Virus record (IMG/VR): IMGVR_UViG_2698536355_000010 | Origin: a virus | Lineage: Duplodnaviria > Heunggongvirae > Uroviricota > Caudoviricetes | Length of the DNA stretch: 39,062 nucleotides | Strand: one strand, 5' to 3' | Shown here: positions 10,145 to 39,062 of the stretch, piece after piece | How the letters are laid out: the number at the start of each line of letters is the position of its first letter | Position numbering within the stretch: the first letter of the stretch is position 1 | Notes under the pieces: model-generated | Databases searched by the model: none | The model's input: the letters and a program-made list of their open reading frames with translations, nothing else | Told to the model about the DNA's origin: nothing | Program-made: the position numbers and the translations under genes

Positions 10145-10711
10145 TCAGGGAGATTCATTGCTCTTATTTGCCGGAAATTTTCTATAAATGGTAGAAACGC
10201 CTACATCAAAAATCAGTGCAATACGCAGTCTTGATTCTCCGGCCTCGAGTAAACGTCCAATCTGTGCCCACTGTTCGGTGGTCAACTTAGGACGGCGTCC
10301 ACCTACTCTGCCTTTAGCACGAGCTGCAGCCAGCCCTGCCCTGGTACGTTCAACTATCAGTTCGCGTTCCATTTCAGCCAGGGCACCCATGACATGAAAA
10401 AAGAAACGGCCCATTGGGGTACTGGTATCAATACTGTCAGTCAGGCTTCTGAAATTCACACCACGCTGGCGCAACTCTTCTATCAGCGTAACAAGATGCC
10501 GCATACTGCGCCCCAACCTGTCCAGCTTCCAGACAACCAGCGTGTCTCCTGCCGATAGTGTCCTGAGCAGTTTTTTCAGCCCCGGTCTGTCGGACTTAGT
10601 GCCACTGATTTTATCCTCAAAAATCCGCTCACATCCCGCGCAGTTCAGTGCATTACGTTGCAAATCGGTGTTCTGGTCATTTGTTGACACGCGTACATAG
10701 CCAATAAGCAT
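10145..10711 (-). CDS. serine-recombinase DNA invertase (Gin/Hin/Pin/Cin family)
   Basis: N-terminus MLIGYVRVSTNDQNTDLQRNAL with catalytic Ser motif and C-terminal HTH; start set at third ATG (10711) which has GGGGGA 5 nt upstream. Confidence 0.9.
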   Translation of the reverse strand: MLIGYVRVSTNDQNTDLQRNALNCAGCERIFEDKISGTKSDRPGLKKLLRTLSAGDTLVVWKLDRLGRSMRHLVTLIEELRQRGVNFRSLTDSIDTSTPMGRFFFHVMGALAEMERELIVERTRAGLAAARAKGRVGGRRPKLTTEQWAQIGRLLEAGESRLRIALIFDVGVSTIYRKFPANKSNESP

Positions 10712-10738
10712 GATCATCCCCCTGAATAAAAACCGGAG

Positions 10739-15786: not shown

Positions 15787-15832
15787 ATGGAAATCATTGC
15801 CTATCGTAAACGACAGTGATATTAAAGAGGTT

Positions 15833-15850
15833 TGTGCAGTCACCCACACA
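15833..15850 (-). promoter_or_regulatory. candidate Ogr/B-dependent late promoter element (P_V)
   Basis: tgtgcagtcacccacaca, TGT-N12-ACA with the same extended pattern and orientation as the P_F and P_O dyads; centre only about 55 bp from V ATG. Confidence 0.4.
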
Positions 15851-15884
15851 AGATGATCATCAAATCTGTTTTGGAAGGATTCTT

Positions 15885-17405
15885 ATGAGTTGCTTAGATC
15901 AATTATCTTCAGAAAATAAAAAATCCCTATTATCATCAGTATTTTCAAAGAGCTATTTCCTCTGGATTGGCTCTGGATTTTCGTACAATTTCGGATATCC
16001 AAGTTGGGGGGCCGTACTTGAAGAAATAGCAAAGCGAATAGAGTACCCGTTAAAATTAGATTCATCACAGCCTCTGCGTGCTGCAGAATTACTTTTAAGT
16101 TATGCGATGAGTGAATCATCAATAAAAGAATATGATTTCAATTCGCTCGTTGCCAGGACGATTATAGATTTAAAAACAGAAACTAAAGAACCAAGATGGC
16201 TTAAAAGATTCAAACTCTTCGCTCCCAATACAATTGTAACAACTAACTGGGATGAGGTGCTTGAAGAAACATTTGAGCATATGGCAAATAAAATCATCAG
16301 AAAGGATCCATTCCCTAAAGTATCAACAAAAGGGAAAAATATCTTCAAAATTCATGGTGACGTCGGAAAACCTGATTCGATTGTTATAACACAAAGTCAA
16401 TACTTTTCTTTTCAGCGCGAAGACACTTATCTTAGCCGAAAAATTTACACATTGTTTTCAGAAATGTCCCCTATATTCATCGGTTACAGCTTAACCGACC
16501 CAAATATAGGTTTCCTTTATGAAGAAGCATTAGCACATCTGCATGGAAAAAACCCGCCAGCATTCATGGTAATTCACCCAGATGCAAACCCTTTAACTTT
16601 CGAGGAGACAAAGTATTTATTTAAATCAAAAAATATACACCTGATTAAAGCAACCATAGAAGACTTCCTTGCAGATTTATCTCAGGAATATAAATCCTTT
16701 AAAGAATCACCTCATCGTTTCAACCTTGAGCACGAACATGTTCTTCCCAAAATAAAAACTGTAATGGATACCGTTACGAAAGGAAAAAAAAATAAAAAAG
16801 CGGAACTAGAAGCCTTATGTCCTCAAAGAGCTGCAAGCTGGGCCGTGACAAAAGCCATAATTGACATTCTAAAGAAACCAATATTGTACATTCAATTCGG
16901 CGGAAAACTTCTTTCTCCAGACAATATTATCCCCTACAGAGAGTTCGATGCTTTAGTTAATGTAGTCATAACACTTAGCAACAATCACGGTTACCCTGAC
17001 GAGCTTATACGTCAAGATTTTCATGCTTCTGTTGTCAAAATGTGCATCGAAACAGAAGGGGTTTGGGACTTCAACTATGCTGAAGTACCTTTCTCTAACA
17101 TTTTAAGAATAAGCCCTAGCCCCGGCACTGAAAGTTTCGACAAAAAAATATCCCATATAATAGAAATTATGCGATGGTCGTCCCCATCTGAAATAGGGAA
17201 GTGCTGGGCAACATGGAATGTATTTAAAGAAAAACAAGATTGGATTAGCCACAGTGATATTGTTGGCATTCTTTCGAAACTTGAAACCGATGGTGACTTA
17301 GAATACCAACCCAGAGATAAAAAATGGCTAAACATCCTGAAAAAATGCCCTCACGCAACGGCTGCAGATATCAAGAGAATTGATACTCTGATAACCCCAG
17401 CTTAG
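15885..17405 (+). CDS. SIR2-like (DHS-like NAD-binding fold) protein with uncharacterised C-terminal domain
   Basis: Motifs FLWIGSGFS (GxGxS), IVTTNWDEVLEE (TTNYD-type), KIHGD, IFIGYSLTDPNI; ATG 15885 preceded by GGAAGGA; gene strongly AT-rich versus flanks. Confidence 0.8.
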   Translation: MSCLDQLSSENKKSLLSSVFSKSYFLWIGSGFSYNFGYPSWGAVLEEIAKRIEYPLKLDSSQPLRAAELLLSYAMSESSIKEYDFNSLVARTIIDLKTETKEPRWLKRFKLFAPNTIVTTNWDEVLEETFEHMANKIIRKDPFPKVSTKGKNIFKIHGDVGKPDSIVITQSQYFSFQREDTYLSRKIYTLFSEMSPIFIGYSLTDPNIGFLYEEALAHLHGKNPPAFMVIHPDANPLTFEETKYLFKSKNIHLIKATIEDFLADLSQEYKSFKESPHRFNLEHEHVLPKIKTVMDTVTKGKKNKKAELEALCPQRAASWAVTKAIIDILKKPILYIQFGGKLLSPDNIIPYREFDALVNVVITLSNNHGYPDELIRQDFHASVVKMCIETEGVWDFNYAEVPFSNILRISPSPGTESFDKKISHIIEIMRWSSPSEIGKCWATWNVFKEKQDWISHSDIVGILSKLETDGDLEYQPRDKKWLNILKKCPHATAADIKRIDTLITPA

Positions 17406-26210: not shown

Positions 26211-26876
26211 TCAAAGCTCTGAGTCTACAGGCTCATGATAAAGGTTTACAGGGTAGTGTATAACCTCATAATTAAGTTGACTAACAGTGTGAGTATGTTG
26301 ACTGTAAAAAACCAATGGGTTTCTCTTACAAGGAGTTATCGAGATAGACTTACAAGCATGAATTCTTGGAGCCGATTTATCTAAATGAGCCTTCCACTTA
26401 GTCATCATTTCATTACATTTTTTATTACGCGTATATATAATTAACCCACCACTTGCACTGTCTACAGTACCAGTGCTATATCGCTCAGTGAGTTGTGCAT
26501 ACCCTTTAAATAAATAACCATATGAACCAGTGTGTTTTTTGGCCTCGCCATGCCAAGTAAATCTATTCAACTTTATTGTTATATCACAATGACCTCGTTG
26601 ATTATTTTCATGATATGCTTCAATTCCCATATCTTTATTTTTTATATTTGCCAGTAAAATTAAAGTAAGCTGATCTTCTGTTAAATCAAAATTCAATTTA
26701 TTTGAATTTTCCTCAATTGCCTGTACAGCAGAATCAAGCTCAATTCTTACAAACTGTTTGACGTTCTCATACGACTGGAGAGCAAACCTAACGCGAGTAA
26801 TAGAAGCATTGATACGCTGAAGAAAAATATCATTATCAATTTCAGCTAAACTCATTGGTGCAGACATTTTTAACAT
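26211..26876 (-). CDS. hypothetical protein, cargo operon gene 3 (possible PD-(D/E)xK-like motif)
   Basis: 221 aa; ATG overlaps upstream stop (ATGA); HCDITIK...(14)...GEAKK resembles a D...ExK motif; AT-rich. Confidence 0.6.
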   Translation of the reverse strand: MLKMSAPMSLAEIDNDIFLQRINASITRVRFALQSYENVKQFVRIELDSAVQAIEENSNKLNFDLTEDQLTLILLANIKNKDMGIEAYHENNQRGHCDITIKLNRFTWHGEAKKHTGSYGYLFKGYAQLTERYSTGTVDSASGGLIIYTRNKKCNEMMTKWKAHLDKSAPRIHACKSISITPCKRNPLVFYSQHTHTVSQLNYEVIHYPVNLYHEPVDSEL

Positions 26877-27310
26877 CAGACAATATCCTTTAATTTAGAT
26901 TCATCTAATGTAAAAAAAGGAAAGACGAAGGACTTATAGTCATACATAATCTCCCCTGTAAATGGGTTTACTAAAGATTGATTAATTTCAGCCTCTATAA
27001 CATCTTCTAACTCAAGCTCAATAGGATCATGAAAATCATCAATAAACCAATAATTGAGTTTTAAAAACTCAACCTTTGGACTACAAAGAATTTGTATAGC
27101 TGGGTACACAACCTGCTCATATGCTTCAGGTTGTATACATCCTTTATAACCATTAACGATACTAAATAAATCTTTATAACTCAGAGCTATATTAGGCGAT
27201 TTCTTTGCTCTCACACCAATTTCATCATACAAATAGCAAGCTAGCGCCCCTATATCAGGGCGCTCTGCACATATTTCTTTGATGATCTGGGGCATATCAC
27301 CATCCTTCAT
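26876..27310 (-). CDS. hypothetical acidic protein, cargo operon gene 2
   Basis: 144 aa from ATG 27310 with GGAG 6 nt upstream; tightly packed between genes 1 and 3. Confidence 0.55.
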   Translation of the reverse strand: MKDGDMPQIIKEICAERPDIGALACYLYDEIGVRAKKSPNIALSYKDLFSIVNGYKGCIQPEAYEQVVYPAIQILCSPKVEFLKLNYWFIDDFHDPIELELEDVIEAEINQSLVNPFTGEIMYDYKSFVFPFFTLDESKLKDIV

Positions 27311-27322
27311 TGCTGACTCCAA

Positions 27323-28429
27323 TTATAATATCAGCTTTGTGAGGGTTTCGAAATCATCTTTGGATATACATTTGCTTAATATAGCATAATTGACAGGAGA
27401 GCACCCACTACCACCTAAATGTCTGCGTAATGTTCCTGGAATGATAAGCTCTACACTATCCGCCAATTGCAATTTTGGATTATTCCTATCTACTCTAATT
27501 CCAATACGATATAAACCAATATTACCTACAGCTTTAATGCCCTCTTTATTAAACAGATCATCACGCAAGTCTTTCTTAGCCACATTTTTCTTTTCCTTAT
27601 GAGTGGTTCCCTCATAAGTTAAAAATGACAAATCGAACACCTTATAACTTAAACTTGAATATGGCATTACATTTTGCTTGAAAATTGGCTCAATTAATGG
27701 ATAAAAATCCTTTTCCGATGAATTAAATTGATAACCTGCGCAATTATATAACTCACGAATAAAATTCGTTTTCGCAAAAACGATATTATCACCAACAACA
27801 TTACCATTAGTATCAATTAATACATGGATTTTATTTGAAGCTGAATCTAATATACACACATCAAAACACTGACGTTTTTCTTTTCTCTTCGCAATGATTT
27901 CATCAAACTGTTTGTATGCTGCTAACTTTGACGGAGGGACTTTCTCTCTTACAACCAGCTCCCTGATAGATGAAAATACCAAAATAGACTGAGTATTTTG
28001 CTTAGAGTAATTAACAAGCTCAAGTTGATTTTTAATAGCATGCTGTAATTGAACATCATCAACAATCGTTTCGACTAATGATGTTGGTTGCTTCATCATA
28101 TTCCATTGGAGAGCATATCTATCATCAAGTAATTTAATTACTTGACTATCTACAGACAAACTAAATATTGCTTTTTCACCATAAACAACCTGCCCAAAGA
28201 CTAAATCATTTACACTTGCAATGATTTTGTCAAATTTTTGCCTATCTTTCTTTTTAAAATCAATGAGGCTTTCTAGTATTTTGTCGTTTGTTGCTTCACG
28301 CCCTCTACCTGTAGGTAGCCCTAAAGAAGCAATAATTGGTCTGGCGATATGCCACGTAAAACGTTCAGTTAAGGCTAAGATCGACTTTAACTCAAAGTCA
28401 GAAAGCACCACTGGGACACCACTTGTCAT
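27323..28429 (-). CDS. hypothetical protein, cargo operon gene 1
   Basis: 368 aa from ATG 28429 with AGGTG upstream; no nucleotide-binding or other motif recognised by eye; AT-rich. Confidence 0.6.
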   Translation of the reverse strand: MTSGVPVVLSDFELKSILALTERFTWHIARPIIASLGLPTGRGREATNDKILESLIDFKKKDRQKFDKIIASVNDLVFGQVVYGEKAIFSLSVDSQVIKLLDDRYALQWNMMKQPTSLVETIVDDVQLQHAIKNQLELVNYSKQNTQSILVFSSIRELVVREKVPPSKLAAYKQFDEIIAKRKEKRQCFDVCILDSASNKIHVLIDTNGNVVGDNIVFAKTNFIRELYNCAGYQFNSSEKDFYPLIEPIFKQNVMPYSSLSYKVFDLSFLTYEGTTHKEKKNVAKKDLRDDLFNKEGIKAVGNIGLYRIGIRVDRNNPKLQLADSVELIIPGTLRRHLGGSGCSPVNYAILSKCISKDDFETLTKLIL

Positions 28430-28589
28430 AACATGCACCTAGTCAACCCAAAAGCAATTGAAAATCGCTCTTGTCTTAATTTTTTCCATCAATATCTAAC
28501 AAATTACCTTAATGTTGAAAAAGTTTGCAAGCCATTTGCGTCTAAAAAGTGACTTGACTCAATGTGTTACAAAGCTTAGCGAGCGCGCG

Positions 28590-28608
28590 CTCGTATCCCC
28601 GCCACGCC
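28590..28608 (-). other. cos-like cohesive-end site
   Basis: Minus strand reads GGCGTGGCGGGGATACGAG followed by CGCGCGCT, closely resembling the remembered P2/186 cos (GGCG[A/T]GGCGGGGAAAGCA...GCGCGCT). Confidence 0.5.
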
Positions 28609-28647
28609 TGCCCGCTTTATGTAGTGGTTTTCATGCACCTGCATGAC

Positions 28648-28676
28648 ATAAGCAAAAGCCCGCCAGCTCTGGCGGG
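28648..28676 (-). terminator. rho-independent terminator downstream of HNH gene
   Basis: Stem gcccgccag/ctggcgggc (28657..28676) followed on minus strand by TTTTGCTT. Confidence 0.5.
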
Positions 28677-28790
28677 CATCAGCAAAAACGATCCTCAAAC
28701 GATCATGCGATTTCATGCGACATAGACATGCGTTGGCAAAAATGTACGAAATACTCAGCTTACAGGAAATGGTCTTTTTCCAACCTCCAG

Positions 28791-29510
28791 TTAGCCAAAG
28801 CAGAAACCAATATTGCAATTTGAAACTCCACAGTTGTGAAATTGATGTGGACCGACTCTTAGCTTGTGTTCGTCTCCTACAATCCGAGTCCCCTTAACCA
28901 ACATATCTAATCTTTCCACAATCAATCTTTCAGGCGCATCAACTTTAATAATTAAACGAGGACCTTTCCTTTTTTCTATAATAGTTATTCTAGGACCAAC
29001 AACCTGAACATCCCAATGCCTTGCACTACAAACCCACTCATTCTTAATTAATTCAAGATTAACAATACCTTGACTATCGTAAAATTTACCCGAAATAAGA
29101 AAAGCATTATTTTCTTTTTCAATGGTTAACAATGGCTCATTTTGAAACATTATTGGTACAGTACAGGATTCAAACGTCGCACCACCAAATATTATTGTTG
29201 GATGCCTATCAGAAAAGTCCAATATATCGGCCACATTCCCTTTTTGTAAGGCTGCAGGAGATTCCATTGCTTTAATTATTTTCTCTTTAGAGTAAAGACG
29301 TTTCGTTACTTTCGCATGGCACGTAGGACAAAGTAGTGCTATTGCATTTGGAGAGTGCTCCTTTGCATCAGCGTATGTGGGAATTACATGCTCATACTCA
29401 ACAATGGGAGAAGCACAAACAACGCAACCAAAGCCACAGCGCTGCCTTACCTCCAGTTTTACAGGTTCAGGAATTGTTCTAGATAACCCATGCTTGTTAA
29501 TAGTTGTCAT
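28791..29510 (-). CDS. HNH-endonuclease-domain protein
   Basis: N-terminal CGFGCVVC...EYEHVIP...N...LLCPTCH (HNH pattern); C-terminal 160 aa unassigned; AT-rich; AAGGTAAGG before ATG. Confidence 0.7.
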   Translation of the reverse strand: MTTINKHGLSRTIPEPVKLEVRQRCGFGCVVCASPIVEYEHVIPTYADAKEHSPNAIALLCPTCHAKVTKRLYSKEKIIKAMESPAALQKGNVADILDFSDRHPTIIFGGATFESCTVPIMFQNEPLLTIEKENNAFLISGKFYDSQGIVNLELIKNEWVCSARHWDVQVVGPRITIIEKRKGPRLIIKVDAPERLIVERLDMLVKGTRIVGDEHKLRVGPHQFHNCGVSNCNIGFCFG

Positions 29511-35633: not shown

Positions 35634-36230
35634 ATGTCAACATCAAAGTACCCAAGTGAGATCAAAATAAATCCCAATAAAGGTGGTAAGGCTGCGATTG
35701 AGCGATTAGTCGAAGCCTATGGCTTTACGACACGACAGGCTTTAGCTGATCACTTGGAAGTATCAAAAAGCACACTAGCGAACAGGTATTTGCGGGATAC
35801 ATTTCCTGCTGACTGGATAATCCAATGTGCTCTTGAAACAGGAACCTCCCTCAAATGGTTAACTACCGGACAAGGCCTTAAGCAAAGCTCGCTGACAGCA
35901 GCTACAGAAGAGCTTGTTAAGTTTCGCCTTGCCGCAGGCAAAATGATTGAAGACGGTTCATATGTCTTCGATTCATCATTTCTTCCTGCAAACCTTTCAT
36001 CACCAATTGTTGTTCAGGATGGACTCGTCACATACATTTGTGATCAAAAATTTTCTGAAGTACTTGATGGAAACTGGTTAATCAATATCGACGGAACCTA
36101 TTCCATTCGAAAAATCACAAGGCTTCCTAAAGGAAGGATTAAAATTACAACAGCAGAGAATAGCTTTGAATGTGCATTTTCTGATATTGAAGTGGTTGCT
36201 TGTATAAGAAGTACAATAGTCTCGAATTAA
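35634..36230 (+). CDS. cI: CI immunity repressor (phage 186 type)
   Basis: 198-aa ORF with N-terminal HTH (TTRQALADHLEVSKSTLANR); divergent from apl. Confidence 0.8.
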   Translation: MSTSKYPSEIKINPNKGGKAAIERLVEAYGFTTRQALADHLEVSKSTLANRYLRDTFPADWIIQCALETGTSLKWLTTGQGLKQSSLTAATEELVKFRLAAGKMIEDGSYVFDSSFLPANLSSPIVVQDGLVTYICDQKFSEVLDGNWLINIDGTYSIRKITRLPKGRIKITTAENSFECAFSDIEVVACIRSTIVSN

Positions 36231-36250
36231 TATAGTAAAAGGATTTTAAA

Positions 36251-37927
36251 ATGAATTCATTTGCCATCGTTATACTCTTATTAGCATTTCTCGCCCCTGT
36301 TCTAGCTGTAATATTATTTAAACAAAGTAAAAAACACAAAGCGGCTATAGATAACCTGACAGCTAACAACATAGCCCTTTCTAACCAACTGATTGAAAAT
36401 CAAGAAAAACTAGCACAGACCGTACGAGAATTATCAGAGCTTGAAGGGCGAGCAGCACCATTGTGGCAATACGAAGAATTGCACAGCGCAGTAATGGATG
36501 CAGAGAATAAGATAAAAAATGCGGACTCAATAGCCAAGCAAAAAATAGATGAAGCCCAAATTAAGGCGGCTAAAACAGTAAACGAAGCAAATTATCAAGC
36601 TCAGATGACAATAAGCAACGCTAATAGCGAAGCTATAGCAATCACCAAAGACGCTCGCGATGCACGCCTGAAAGCCAAAGAACGTCTTGATAATGCTAAT
36701 AATAAAGCAAATGAGCTAATCTCAAATGCTAATGACAATGCAGTAAAAATTATTTCTGATGCAGAAGAAAGAGCAAAGGAGATTGCTGGTTCAGCATATG
36801 AAGCTAAAGAGTTTGCAGAAAAATATGAAGCAGTTGCAAAATCAATGAAAAATAAAATTGAAGGTTATGGTGATGAATGGATCATCCCTAACCGTAGTGT
36901 ACTTGATGAGCTGGCAGAAAATTATGAATTTACAGATGCAGGCAAGGAATTACAAAAAGCCAGAGAGTTAACCAAATCATTAATAAAAACTAATAAAGCT
37001 GCTTCGTGTGATTATGTTGAGCAAAACAGGCGTAATACTGCCATAAACTTTGTTTTGGATGCCTTCAATGGAAGAGTTGACAGTATTTTATCAAAAGTCA
37101 AACACAACAATTTTGGAAAACTTTCCCAAGAAATAAAAGATGCATTTCAACTAGTAAATTACAATGGCTCTGCCTTTAGGTCCGCAAAAATAAGTGACAT
37201 CTATCTTCAGGCAAGACTCAACGAGCTAAAATGGGGTGTAGCAGTTAATGAAATTATGCTCGAAGAAAAAGAAGAGCAAAGAAGGATTAAAGAACAGCTT
37301 CGTGAAGAGGAAAGAGCTCGTAGAGAATATGAAAAAGCGATAAAAGAAGCTGAAAAAGAAGAAAAAGCTATTCAGCAAGCTATAAATAAAGCAACGAAAG
37401 AACTTATGCTTGCAAATGAAGAACAACGCTTAGCTTTAGAGCAAAAAATAGCTGAACTACAGTTAAAATATGAAGAAGCTGAAGCTAAAAATCAACGAGC
37501 TATTTCTATGGCTCAACAAACCAGATCAGGCCACGTCTATATCATTAGTAATATTGGTTCATTTGGCGAAGATGTATATAAAATTGGAATGACACGCCGC
37601 CTTGAACCACTTGATCGTGTTCGTGAACTCGGAGATGCTAGTGTTCCTTTTTCGTTCGATGTTCATGCGATGATTTATAGTGATGATGCACCATCATTAG
37701 AAAACCATCTGCATAAAGTTTTCAACGAAAAGCAGGTCAATAAAATTAACTCACGAAAAGAGTTTTTTAACGTAAATTTAAAAGAAATCAAATCAGTTAT
37801 TGAAGACATGAACATCAACGCCCACTGGACAATGTTTGCAGAGGCGAAAGAATATAGAGAGTCTCTAGCTATTGAGCAGGAGCGCAAAGCAGCCACTTCC
37901 GCCAACGATGAACTACATGTTGCTTAG
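36251..37927 (+). CDS. membrane-anchored coiled-coil protein with C-terminal T5orf172/GIY-YIG-like domain
   Basis: N-terminal TM helix (FAIVILLLAFLAPVLAVILF), roughly 400 aa A/E/K/N-rich coiled coil, C-terminus VYIISNIGSFGEDVYKIGMTRR...PFSFDV...LENHLHKVF...EFF; AT-rich; AGGA before ATG. Confidence 0.75.
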   Translation: MNSFAIVILLLAFLAPVLAVILFKQSKKHKAAIDNLTANNIALSNQLIENQEKLAQTVRELSELEGRAAPLWQYEELHSAVMDAENKIKNADSIAKQKIDEAQIKAAKTVNEANYQAQMTISNANSEAIAITKDARDARLKAKERLDNANNKANELISNANDNAVKIISDAEERAKEIAGSAYEAKEFAEKYEAVAKSMKNKIEGYGDEWIIPNRSVLDELAENYEFTDAGKELQKARELTKSLIKTNKAASCDYVEQNRRNTAINFVLDAFNGRVDSILSKVKHNNFGKLSQEIKDAFQLVNYNGSAFRSAKISDIYLQARLNELKWGVAVNEIMLEEKEEQRRIKEQLREEERARREYEKAIKEAEKEEKAIQQAINKATKELMLANEEQRLALEQKIAELQLKYEEAEAKNQRAISMAQQTRSGHVYIISNIGSFGEDVYKIGMTRRLEPLDRVRELGDASVPFSFDVHAMIYSDDAPSLENHLHKVFNEKQVNKINSRKEFFNVNLKEIKSVIEDMNINAHWTMFAEAKEYRESLAIEQERKAATSANDELHVA

Positions 37928-37985
37928 CAATGTATGTTTCATAGTAATCACACATTGATTACTGGTTACATATACAGTTAAATTT

Positions 37986-38009
37986 AGCCCTCTGATATGA
38001 GGGCTTTTT
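37986..38009 (+). terminator. hairpin terminator abutting the int start
   Basis: agccctc-tgatat-gagggct followed by tttt, ending 1 nt before the int ATG; the stem contains the only SD-like sequence (GAGGG) for int. Confidence 0.5.
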
Positions 38010-39062
38010 ATGGCAGTACGAAAACTAACCACAGGGAAATGGCTTTGCGAATGTTACCCCGCCGGACGAAGTGGGCGTCGTGTGCGTAAACAATTCGCTA
38101 CCAAAGGCGAAGCACTGGCTTTTGAGCGCCACACGATGGAAGAAACCGAAGCAAAGCCCTGGCTGGGTGAATCAGTGGATCGTCGAACACTGAAAGACGT
38201 GGTTGAGCTATGGTTCAAACTACATGGTAAATCTCTGACAGCTGGGCAGCATGTCTATGACAAATTGCTGTTGATGGTTGACGCTCTGGGCAATCCTCTT
38301 GCAACCGATCTCACCTCTAAAATGTTTGCCCACTATCGAGATAAACGCCTGACAGGCGAGATCTACTTCAGCGAGAAATGGAAGAAAGGAGCAAGCCCGG
38401 TCACCATTAACCTGGAGCAAAGCTATCTAAGTAGTGTTTTTAGCGAACTATCCCGTCTGGGCGAATGGTCGTATCCGAACCCACTGGAGAACATGCGAAA
38501 ATTCACCATCGCAGAAAAAGAGATGGCATGGCTTACCCATGAGCAGATTGTTGAATTGCTGGCTGATTGCAAACGTCAGGACCCAATTCTGGCACTGGTA
38601 GTTAAGATATGCTTAAGCACAGGCGCACGCTGGCGTGAAGCCGTAAATCTTACCCGCTCACAGGTGACCAAATACCGAATTACCTTTGTCAGAACGAAGG
38701 GGAAGAAAAACAGAAGCATCCCTATCAGTAAAGAGCTTTACGAAGAGATCATGGCGCTTGATGGGTTCAATTTCTTCACAGACTGCTATTTTCAATTTTT
38801 ATCCGTGATGGAAAAAACGTCTATCGTGCTCCCTCGCGGTCAACTCACACACGTTCTGCGCCATACGTTTGCGGCGCACTTCATGATGTCGGGTGGAAAC
38901 ATTCTGGCCTTACAAAAAATTCTCGGACACCACGATATAAAAATGACTATGCGTTACGCACATCTGGCACCGGATCATCTAGAAACGGCGCTCCGTTTCA
39001 ATCCTCTGGCAACGCTGCCAAGTGGCGACAAAGTGGCGGCAGCGGTTGGCATTACCCCGTAA
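38010..39062 (+). CDS. int: tyrosine integrase
   Basis: 350 aa; LSTGARWREA, HVLRHTFA and MRYAHL blocks match P2-family Int; stop at the window edge. Confidence 0.9.
   Translation: MAVRKLTTGKWLCECYPAGRSGRRVRKQFATKGEALAFERHTMEETEAKPWLGESVDRRTLKDVVELWFKLHGKSLTAGQHVYDKLLLMVDALGNPLATDLTSKMFAHYRDKRLTGEIYFSEKWKKGASPVTINLEQSYLSSVFSELSRLGEWSYPNPLENMRKFTIAEKEMAWLTHEQIVELLADCKRQDPILALVVKICLSTGARWREAVNLTRSQVTKYRITFVRTKGKKNRSIPISKELYEEIMALDGFNFFTDCYFQFLSVMEKTSIVLPRGQLTHVLRHTFAAHFMMSGGNILALQKILGHHDIKMTMRYAHLAPDHLETALRFNPLATLPSGDKVAAAVGITP

Follow-up and report, generated by a model that had tools for sequence, protein, structure and literature searches.

A gene at positions 36251 to 37927 (plus strand) of IMG/VR record IMGVR_UViG_2698536355_000010, a stretch of 39,062 nucleotides (nt) that we analyzed at its full length and call the window, encodes a 558-amino-acid (aa) protein of the SNIPE (PD-lambda-1) family. 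By analogy with the family member studied experimentally, the best explanation of this gene, to which we give a probability of about 0.8, is a SNIPE-type membrane-tethered nuclease that would cut incoming phage DNA at the site of injection and spare the cell. An earlier, sequence-only reading of this DNA had proposed a membrane-tethered single-gene nuclease serving as a prophage exclusion gene. The family assignment supports that proposal, which corresponds to the published mechanism of the gene's family. The mechanism has been public since 2025, and the gene already carries a label in standard tools; the reading is supported but not new. The gene and the parts of its product are as follows.

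36251-37927, plus strand: SNIPE/PD-lambda-1 family gene; intact open reading frame (ORF) with an ATG start, 558 aa plus stop codon
36260-36319, plus strand: predicted N-terminal transmembrane (TM) helix, aa 4-23 (FAIVILLLAFLAPVLAVILF), then KQSKKHK (hydropathy)
36320-36862, plus strand: predicted N-terminal helical stalk, aa 24-204, rich in Ala, Asn, Lys, and Glu (AlphaFold2 helices 3-179 and 181-204)
36863-37240, plus strand: predicted helical globular domain with DUF4041, aa 205-330 (AlphaFold2 predicted local distance difference test [pLDDT] score, 89-98)
37049-37216, plus strand: Pfam core of DUF4041 (PF13250), aa 267-322 (3.1e-12 with the whole protein, 7.3e-14 on the fragment)
37241-37525, plus strand: predicted helical hairpin linker rich in Glu, Lys, and Arg, aa 331-425 (AlphaFold2 helices 316-387 and 390-425)
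37526-37810, plus strand: GIY-YIG-type nuclease domain (T5orf172/MUG113), aa 426-520 (Pfam T5orf172, 3.2e-17; MUG113, 3.7e-20)
37700-37702, plus strand: predicted catalytic glutamate E484 (GAA codon), which aligns with SNIPE E414

Assignment of the 558-aa protein to the SNIPE family

Two PADLOC models of PD-Lambda-1 matched the protein: PDLC03976 (E = 2.4e-120, aa 106 to 550 against model positions 36 to 481 of 491) and PDLC03977 (E = 7.9e-117). Its match in PHROGs was phrog_1847 (6.6e-133), a family of unknown function. RefSeq names the identical E. coli gene either "DUF4041 domain-containing protein" or "SNIPE associated domain-containing protein," and a newer Pfam release, as seen on orthologues, names PF13250 "SNIPE." A word-index-free search of 1.84 billion cluster representatives returned 3,368 family representatives at an E value of ≤1e-3 and 1,409 at ≤1e-30.

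The ORF had been placed between a repressor and an integrase gene by the sequence-only reading, and the ORF call together with Pfam matches on the neighbors confirmed this placement. The gene is also AT-rich, as had been proposed: its GC content is 0.370 (0.272 at third codon positions), compared with 0.499 for the window and 0.488 (0.504 at third positions) for the integrase gene, int. A chance ORF is contradicted by orthologues in Klebsiella and Citrobacter, which share 84 to 85% protein identity with it at saturated synonymous sites and a nonsynonymous divergence (dN) of about 0.10.

Two GenBank phage records (ON470620 and OM835953) carry the label "chromosome segregation ATPase" for this protein. 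We rejected the label because the protein has no Walker A motif. The SMC_prok_A model gave 15.5 bits against a cutoff of 729.

Protein architecture and the nuclease domain

Hydropathy confirmed the single N-terminal TM helix of the sequence-only reading. The TM call rests on hydropathy, with a Kyte-Doolittle mean of at least 1.6 over 19 residues as the criterion; aa 4 to 23 were the sole segment to pass it (maximum, 3.16 over 19 residues), and basic residues (KQSKKHK) flank the helix on its C-terminal side. Among the 121 full-length family representatives closest to the protein, a TM-like segment lies within the first 80 aa in 106.

The AlphaFold2 model of the whole protein (mean pLDDT, 86.4; helices at aa 3 to 179, 181 to 204, 316 to 387, and 390 to 425) consists of a very long helix and stalk, a globular part at aa 205 to 330, a hairpin at aa 316 to 425, and an alpha/beta domain at aa 427 to 520. 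Long helices are thus predicted where a long coiled coil had been claimed, and that part of the claim stands. The classical heptad form of coiled coil does not and was rejected, given that hydrophobic periodicity in the stalk (aa 30 to 200) peaks at 10 to 11 residues and not at 7; the term applies in its broad sense only. Matches of the stalk to ATP-synt_B, V-ATPase_G_2, and DivIVA were below threshold, and NCBIfam likewise gave only sub-threshold coiled-coil matches to the protein. DUF4041 scored 46.6 bits (gathering cutoff, 27), and the fragment alone scored 51.8 bits. The net charge of aa 201 to 330 is +1, a figure that says little about a DNA-binding surface. The linker (aa 331 to 425) contains neither Pro nor Gly and aligns with the SNIPE linker helix.

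A C-terminal T5orf172/GIY-YIG-like pattern, with DUF4041, was the remaining domain claim, and the Pfam check bore it out with all scores above gathering thresholds. T5orf172 matched aa 427 to 520 with 63.3 bits (cutoff, 20), and MUG113 matched aa 443 to 520 with 72.7 bits. Across 58 diverse homologues, Y430, G446, R449, R450, E484, N497, and N500 were invariant. Judged from this alignment, the invariant set is the predicted GIY-YIG core (Tyr, Gly, Arg, Glu, and Asn). Y443, the Tyr of YIG, is present and is the only core residue listed here that is not invariant in the alignment.

A separate AlphaFold2 model of the C-terminal 141 aa had a beta-beta-alpha-beta-alpha fold (pLDDT, 86.9). The only globular fold matches that Foldseek found in the PDB were GIY-YIG proteins, mainly Slx1, at nonsignificant E values of 0.26 to 0.36 and probabilities of 0.69 to 0.90. 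In a PDB sequence search, the 58-sequence profile retrieved no solved structure related to DUF4041 or to the nuclease, only a weak match of ATP synthase b to the stalk (E = 1e-3). Slx1 and other GIY-YIG nucleases share the core residues with the 558-aa protein, and Slx1 gives its best, though not significant, PDB fold matches. However, what is common to them is a catalytic core of about 95 residues only; their partners and biology differ.

Comparison with experimentally studied SNIPE

PD-lambda-1 was recovered from E. coli ECOR26 by functional selection as a gene of 1503 nt, with DUF4041 at aa 197 to 252 and T5orf172 at aa 357 to 448 of its product (Vassallo et al. 2022, PMC9519451). The name SNIPE comes from a later study by Saxton et al. 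(bioRxiv 10.1101/2025.11.03.685801), which is the source of the following. SNIPE is a membrane-anchored GIY-YIG nuclease with an N-terminal TM helix, for which an N-out/C-in topology was shown experimentally, and its E414A mutant is inactive. Its DUF4041 is a DNA-binding domain and can be crosslinked to the tape measure proteins of siphoviruses. 32P-labeled lambda DNA was cut during, not after, injection. By proximity or crosslinking, SNIPE was associated with the mannose permease ManYZ; protection is limited to siphoviruses, most of which are blocked independently of ManYZ via contacts between DUF4041 and the tape measure protein. With full-length SNIPE, infected cells survive and grow at a high multiplicity of infection (MOI) and membrane-tethered host DNA is left uncut, whereas SNIPE without its TM helix is highly toxic and causes double-strand breaks in the chromosome. 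Finally, the N-terminal regions of 474 homologues are hypervariable and were proposed to be a specificity adapter, and a W257R exchange shifted specificity towards Bas14-18 (10.1101/2025.11.03.685801). A Streptococcus thermophilus homologue is also phage protective.

For comparison we used a 500-aa E. coli DUF4041 protein from a lambdoid prophage of strain 118UI (L001:6984-8486), which was found by distant blastn. It holds all nine residues named for SNIPE (E223, N250, L253, W257, E264, K305, I308, T319, and E414). Because its length equals that of PD-lambda-1 and the nine residues match, we took it as SNIPE, and it would presumably be the same as PD-lambda-1 (RCP76574.1) or nearly so; the cluster lookup did not list RCP76574.1.

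In BLASTP, the 558-aa protein was 50% identical to this 500-aa protein over aa 265 to 555 (E = 4e-77), and E484 aligned with SNIPE E414. The two share the order of their parts (TM helix with basic flank, stalk, DUF4041, helical linker, and T5orf172/MUG113 GIY-YIG domain), the 50% identity extends over DUF4041, linker, and nuclease with the catalytic Glu kept, and both are single-gene systems on prophages. They differ in length (558 versus 500 aa) and in an N terminus that cannot be aligned, of 264 aa here and 195 aa in SNIPE. They also differ at specificity positions, where E223, W257, K305, and T319 of SNIPE correspond to S292, K327, Q375, and N389, respectively. Furthermore, the gene studied here is located between cI and int in a P2/186-like prophage of the myovirus type; for the 500-aa type, the location is the lambdoid prophage of strain 118UI.

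Gene order and expression signals

The window is a piece of an E. coli chromosome. Two host genes, ybjM and one for a ybjL-like permease, stand at its start; the P2/186-like prophage extends from about 3.1 kb through the final base. The elements around the 558-aa gene are as follows.

35634-36230, plus strand: 186-type cI repressor gene, 198 aa (Pfam Phage_CI_repr, 8.2e-32; Phage_CI_C, 5.6e-28)
36231-36250, plus strand: spacer of 20 nt between cI and the SNIPE gene, with the Shine-Dalgarno sequence AAAAGGA 8 nt before the ATG (direct reading)
37928-38009, plus strand: spacer of 82 nt before int, with two predicted hairpins (RNA fold, -30.3 kcal/mol; z = -4.66)
37986-38005, plus strand: second hairpin, AGCCCTC-TGATAT-GAGGGCT, then a T run; ends 4 nt before the int ATG (terminator scan)
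38010-39062, plus strand: tyrosine integrase gene int, 350 aa (Pfam Int_N, 3.2e-32; Phage_integrase, 7.2e-22)
35640-35612, minus strand: strong sigma-70-like promoter (TTGACA, 17-nt spacer, TAGTAT), divergent, directed towards the apl/cox-like gene and overlapping the cI start codon

The cI gene, whose identical copy is named "phage repressor protein CI" in RefSeq, is presumed to be the first gene of the lysogenic operon. The int stop codon ends at the last base of the window, and int adjoins the host gene rcdA in E. coli MS8345 and other strains.

A terminator scan of the 20-nt spacer between cI and the 558-aa gene predicted none, and the AAAAGGA core is kept at the orthologous loci of Klebsiella and Citrobacter. 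Cotranscription of cI and the 558-aa gene is plausible on these sequence signals. Ahead of int, the second hairpin is GC-rich and resembles an intrinsic terminator. The GAGGG in its 3' arm, which it would sequester, is the sole Shine-Dalgarno-like sequence for int. A hairpin 4 to 5 nt before the int start codon is kept in prophages with every type of cargo and occurs in two sequence versions. In one version, among the loci examined (L007 to L013 and L018), an upstream A tract pairs with the U run, which gives it the look of a bidirectional terminator. The hairpin probably ends the transcript of cI and cargo, masks int translation, or both. From this arrangement we infer that cI and cargo would form a constitutive lysogenic transcript, with int expression damped at the hairpin.

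The plus-strand promoter scan found no sigma-70-like site upstream of the 558-aa gene or of cI, and the lysogenic promoter was not located. The only site detected was the divergent lytic promoter listed above, on the minus strand. Phage 186 has a layout in which the lytic and lysogenic promoters stand face to face, and the divergent promoter fits it.

The cI-int interval as a cargo slot

The survey covered 5,426 complete E. coli genomes. The int gene and its 60- to 80-nt leader are common to 1,135 of them, only 164 of which hold the 558-aa gene. In about 970 others, homology to the window starts at 37930 to 37952, right after the stop codon of the gene, and the cI alleles of these sister prophages differ from that of the window, as do the same-strand genes in the slot. 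A conserved core gene at this position was an outcome that the sequence-only reading had set against itself; instead, these approximately 970 E. coli prophages with the same int hold different cargo or none. Because sister prophages with the same int hold other genes or none, the 558-aa gene is cargo, not core.

The contents of the slot in the sister prophages include an Old homologue (PADLOC, 5.6e-234), an AriA/OLD-like ATPase, a KAP NTPase (PDC-S20, 4.2e-82), and, in the minimal case, a 63-aa ORF alone. Klebsiella phage 4LV2017 has a 349-aa hypothetical gene there, and the cI-int interval is empty in ESSI2_ev129 and RE-2010. Slot cargo is invariably on the strand of cI and int, with a gap of 0 to 43 nt to cI. 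Going by its gene content, the cI-int interval is a defense cargo slot, marked as such in sister prophages by Old, the AriA-like ATPase, and PDC-S20.

A 2026 survey described "integrase to primase" as a minor P2 defense hotspot, with 8% of P2 defense systems (NAR 2026, PMC13586616). Like P2 Old, Tin, and Fun(Z) and the cargo of P2-like hotspots (PMC9122126; PMC13586616), the 558-aa gene is accessory and AT-rich, occupies a fixed slot in a prophage of the P2 family, and is presumed to be expressed in the lysogen to exclude other phages. An Old homologue occupies exactly this cI-int slot in sister prophages. In contrast, the classical hotspots lie between gpA and the portal gene or among tail genes, and the protein family and mechanism are unrelated.

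Some sister prophages (L007:2255-3193 and L008:2064-2999) encode a CI of 312 aa with two tandem Phage_CI_repr helix-turn-helix domains. The 198-aa CI of the window aligns with both copies, at 49% and 52% identity, and the longer CI looks like a repressor with a duplicated DNA-binding domain.

Distribution and evolution

An identical cI-gene-int block is present in 164 of the 5,426 genomes (3%), and essentially all genomes with the 558-aa gene (165 genomes) show the same neighbors. The block also occurs in Escherichia phage vB_EcoM-813R9 (99.9% identity) and Klebsiella phage KP12 (95.9%), and the gene is found in Salmonella as well. The Klebsiella and Citrobacter prophages with the 84 to 85% identical proteins have the same geometry (cI of 198 aa, 20-nt gap, 558-aa gene, 82-nt gap, and int). 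Each of the three genes is 76 to 80% identical in nucleotide sequence to its copies there.

No numeric dN/dS ratio is given for this comparison, in which synonymous sites are saturated. Because of that saturation and a dN of only about 0.10, the cI-gene-int block is taken to have been long coinherited, and the gene is under purifying selection. The N-terminal 200 aa evolve fastest, with 67 to 77% identity to the Klebsiella and Citrobacter proteins, compared with 89 to 94% elsewhere. On these identities, the fast N-terminal evolution fits the published adapter idea.

Proposed mechanism and alternatives

In a lysogen, the gene would be transcribed along with cI from the lysogenic promoter. Its product would insert into the inner membrane by the single N-terminal helix, with three N-terminal residues in the periplasm and the rest in the cytoplasm; this topology, predicted here from the sequence, is the one shown for the 500-aa SNIPE. 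The long helical stalk would position DUF4041 and the C-terminal GIY-YIG nuclease beneath the membrane. During genome injection by a foreign phage, most likely a siphovirus, DUF4041 would, by homology with SNIPE, engage the incoming DNA as well as the tape measure protein, and the nuclease would cut that DNA. The same homology suggests that the cell would survive, so that this would be direct defense and not abortive infection, and membrane tethering would keep the nuclease off the chromosome and the resident prophage. More speculatively, the N-terminal 264 aa would probably set the membrane partner complex and hence the phages hit. Zorya, Kiwa, and superinfection exclusion of the HK97 gp15 type also act at the inner membrane during genome injection, and HK97 gp15 resembles SNIPE in its dependence on the tape measure protein. 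However, those systems are multiprotein or nonnuclease blockers with no kinship in sequence or domains, whereas here one polypeptide would be both anchor and nuclease.

Several points weigh against the reading as a SNIPE-type injection-stage nuclease. Expression from the cI operon is a step deduced from gene order and signals, and the equation of the 118UI protein with RCP76574.1 is drawn from length and nine residues. The Foldseek backing for a GIY-YIG fold is statistically weak. BLASTP produced no alignment between the N-terminal 264 aa and the 500-aa SNIPE, and this is the region proposed to contact ManYZ; therefore, the partner and target range may differ, and association with ManYZ cannot be assumed. 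The literature, including that on the protein accession and on phage vB_EcoM-813R9, yielded no functional work on the 558-aa variant. Lastly, of two S. thermophilus homologues that are 98.5% identical, one is fully protective and the other gives no protection, and therefore family membership is no guarantee of activity.

The N terminus is also what gives an appreciable, if less than even, chance to a SNIPE-type nuclease with another trigger or target range, in which the longer, unrelated stalk docks to a complex other than the mannose permease. Its targets could be non-lambda-like phages or conjugative or transforming DNA, and it would refine the best explanation rather than contradict it. Besides failing to align with SNIPE, the N terminus is the fastest-evolving part of the protein and corresponds to the region that the SNIPE study proposed as a hypervariable specificity adapter; Lys occupies position 327, the equivalent of the W257 whose exchange for Arg altered SNIPE specificity. 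Nevertheless, SNIPE acts on most siphoviruses independently of ManYZ through contacts of DUF4041 with the tape measure protein, DUF4041 is kept here, and no data point to targets other than siphoviruses. We consider it improbable that the protein is an abortive-infection toxin, a nuclease released or activated by infection that degrades host and phage DNA alike so that the cell dies. Many prophage cargo nucleases do work by abortive infection, and TM-less SNIPE is highly toxic and breaks the chromosome, but cells with full-length SNIPE survive at a high MOI with their membrane-tethered DNA spared, and the architecture here is the same. Least probable of all, and by our estimate very improbable, is a nondefense gene, whose product would be a selfish homing or DNA-binding protein of the T5orf172 type or else a structural "chromosome segregation ATPase." The annotations of ON470620 and OM835953 say the latter, and T5orf172 domains do occur in phage proteins of unclear role. 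Yet the Walker A motif is absent, the SMC, DivIVA, and ATPase-subunit matches are far below threshold and confined to the stalk, the full-length match is to PD-Lambda-1, and a TM anchor, stable linkage to cI and int, and purifying selection ill suit a homing element.

The SNIPE-type membrane-tethered nuclease is therefore retained as the preferred reading, and the main uncertainty lies in specifics (membrane partner and target range) rather than in the kind of protein. A broader picture is tentative, and we think it rather unlikely to hold in full: the 558-aa SNIPE would dock by its hendecad-periodic stalk to a complex other than the mannose permease and so have a new target range, and the series of cI, Shine-Dalgarno sequence, cargo, terminator hairpin, and int would be a dedicated exchangeable cassette by which 186-like prophages swap single-gene defenses (SNIPE, Old, AriA-like ATPase, and KAP NTPase) under the control of the repressor operon.

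Other features of the prophage

Three further regions of the window were recorded.

15816-17405, plus strand: SIR2-family gene, 529 aa, GC content of about 0.37, in the P2 Z/fun slot among tail and baseplate genes (Pfam SIR2_2, 3.5e-26)
26211-29510, minus strand: four AT-rich ORFs (221, 148, 371, and 239 aa; GC content, 0.34-0.39) in the classical P2 hotspot, portal gene to gpA
10145-10717, minus strand: serine invertase gene beside tail fiber genes (Resolvase, 2.2e-53, plus HTH_7)

The SIR2-family protein also matched PADLOC PDC-S25 (7.6e-29) and ThsA-like models (7e-25), and its gene was found at a coverage of at least 80% in 7 of the 5,426 genomes. For the four-ORF stretch, PADLOC had no match, and the sole Pfam match was HNH (2.4e-5) in the 239-aa ORF. 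Its best coverage in any complete E. coli genome was 80%, a level reached in only 6 of the 5,426, whose annotations call the ORFs hypothetical. The stretch is a candidate uncharacterized defense cassette, perhaps more novel than the SNIPE homologue. The serine invertase suggests an invertible host-range switch of the Cin/Gin type.

A second variable slot of these prophages runs from int to the prophage end (attachment site, att) and in this case falls outside the window, past its final base. Its contents in other loci are as follows.

L010:6299-7051, minus strand: DUF2971 protein (PADLOC PDC-S31)
L011:6246-7474, plus strand: Panacea-domain gene and a hypothetical gene
L004:3872-4489, plus strand: serine acetyltransferase
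L005:3153-4358, plus strand: 401-aa hypothetical protein
L013:7910-8770, plus strand: pentapeptide-repeat protein

Significance

The main value of this analysis is correct filing: the gene is filed as a SNIPE-type injection-stage nuclease, rather than as a "chromosome segregation ATPase," as in the two phage records, or as a DUF4041 protein, as in most genome records. With its conserved hairpin that resembles a terminator, the cI-int slot provides a finer map of a minor defense hotspot of the P2 family, and it may be mined for more single-gene systems, such as the 349-aa hypothetical protein of Klebsiella phage 4LV2017.

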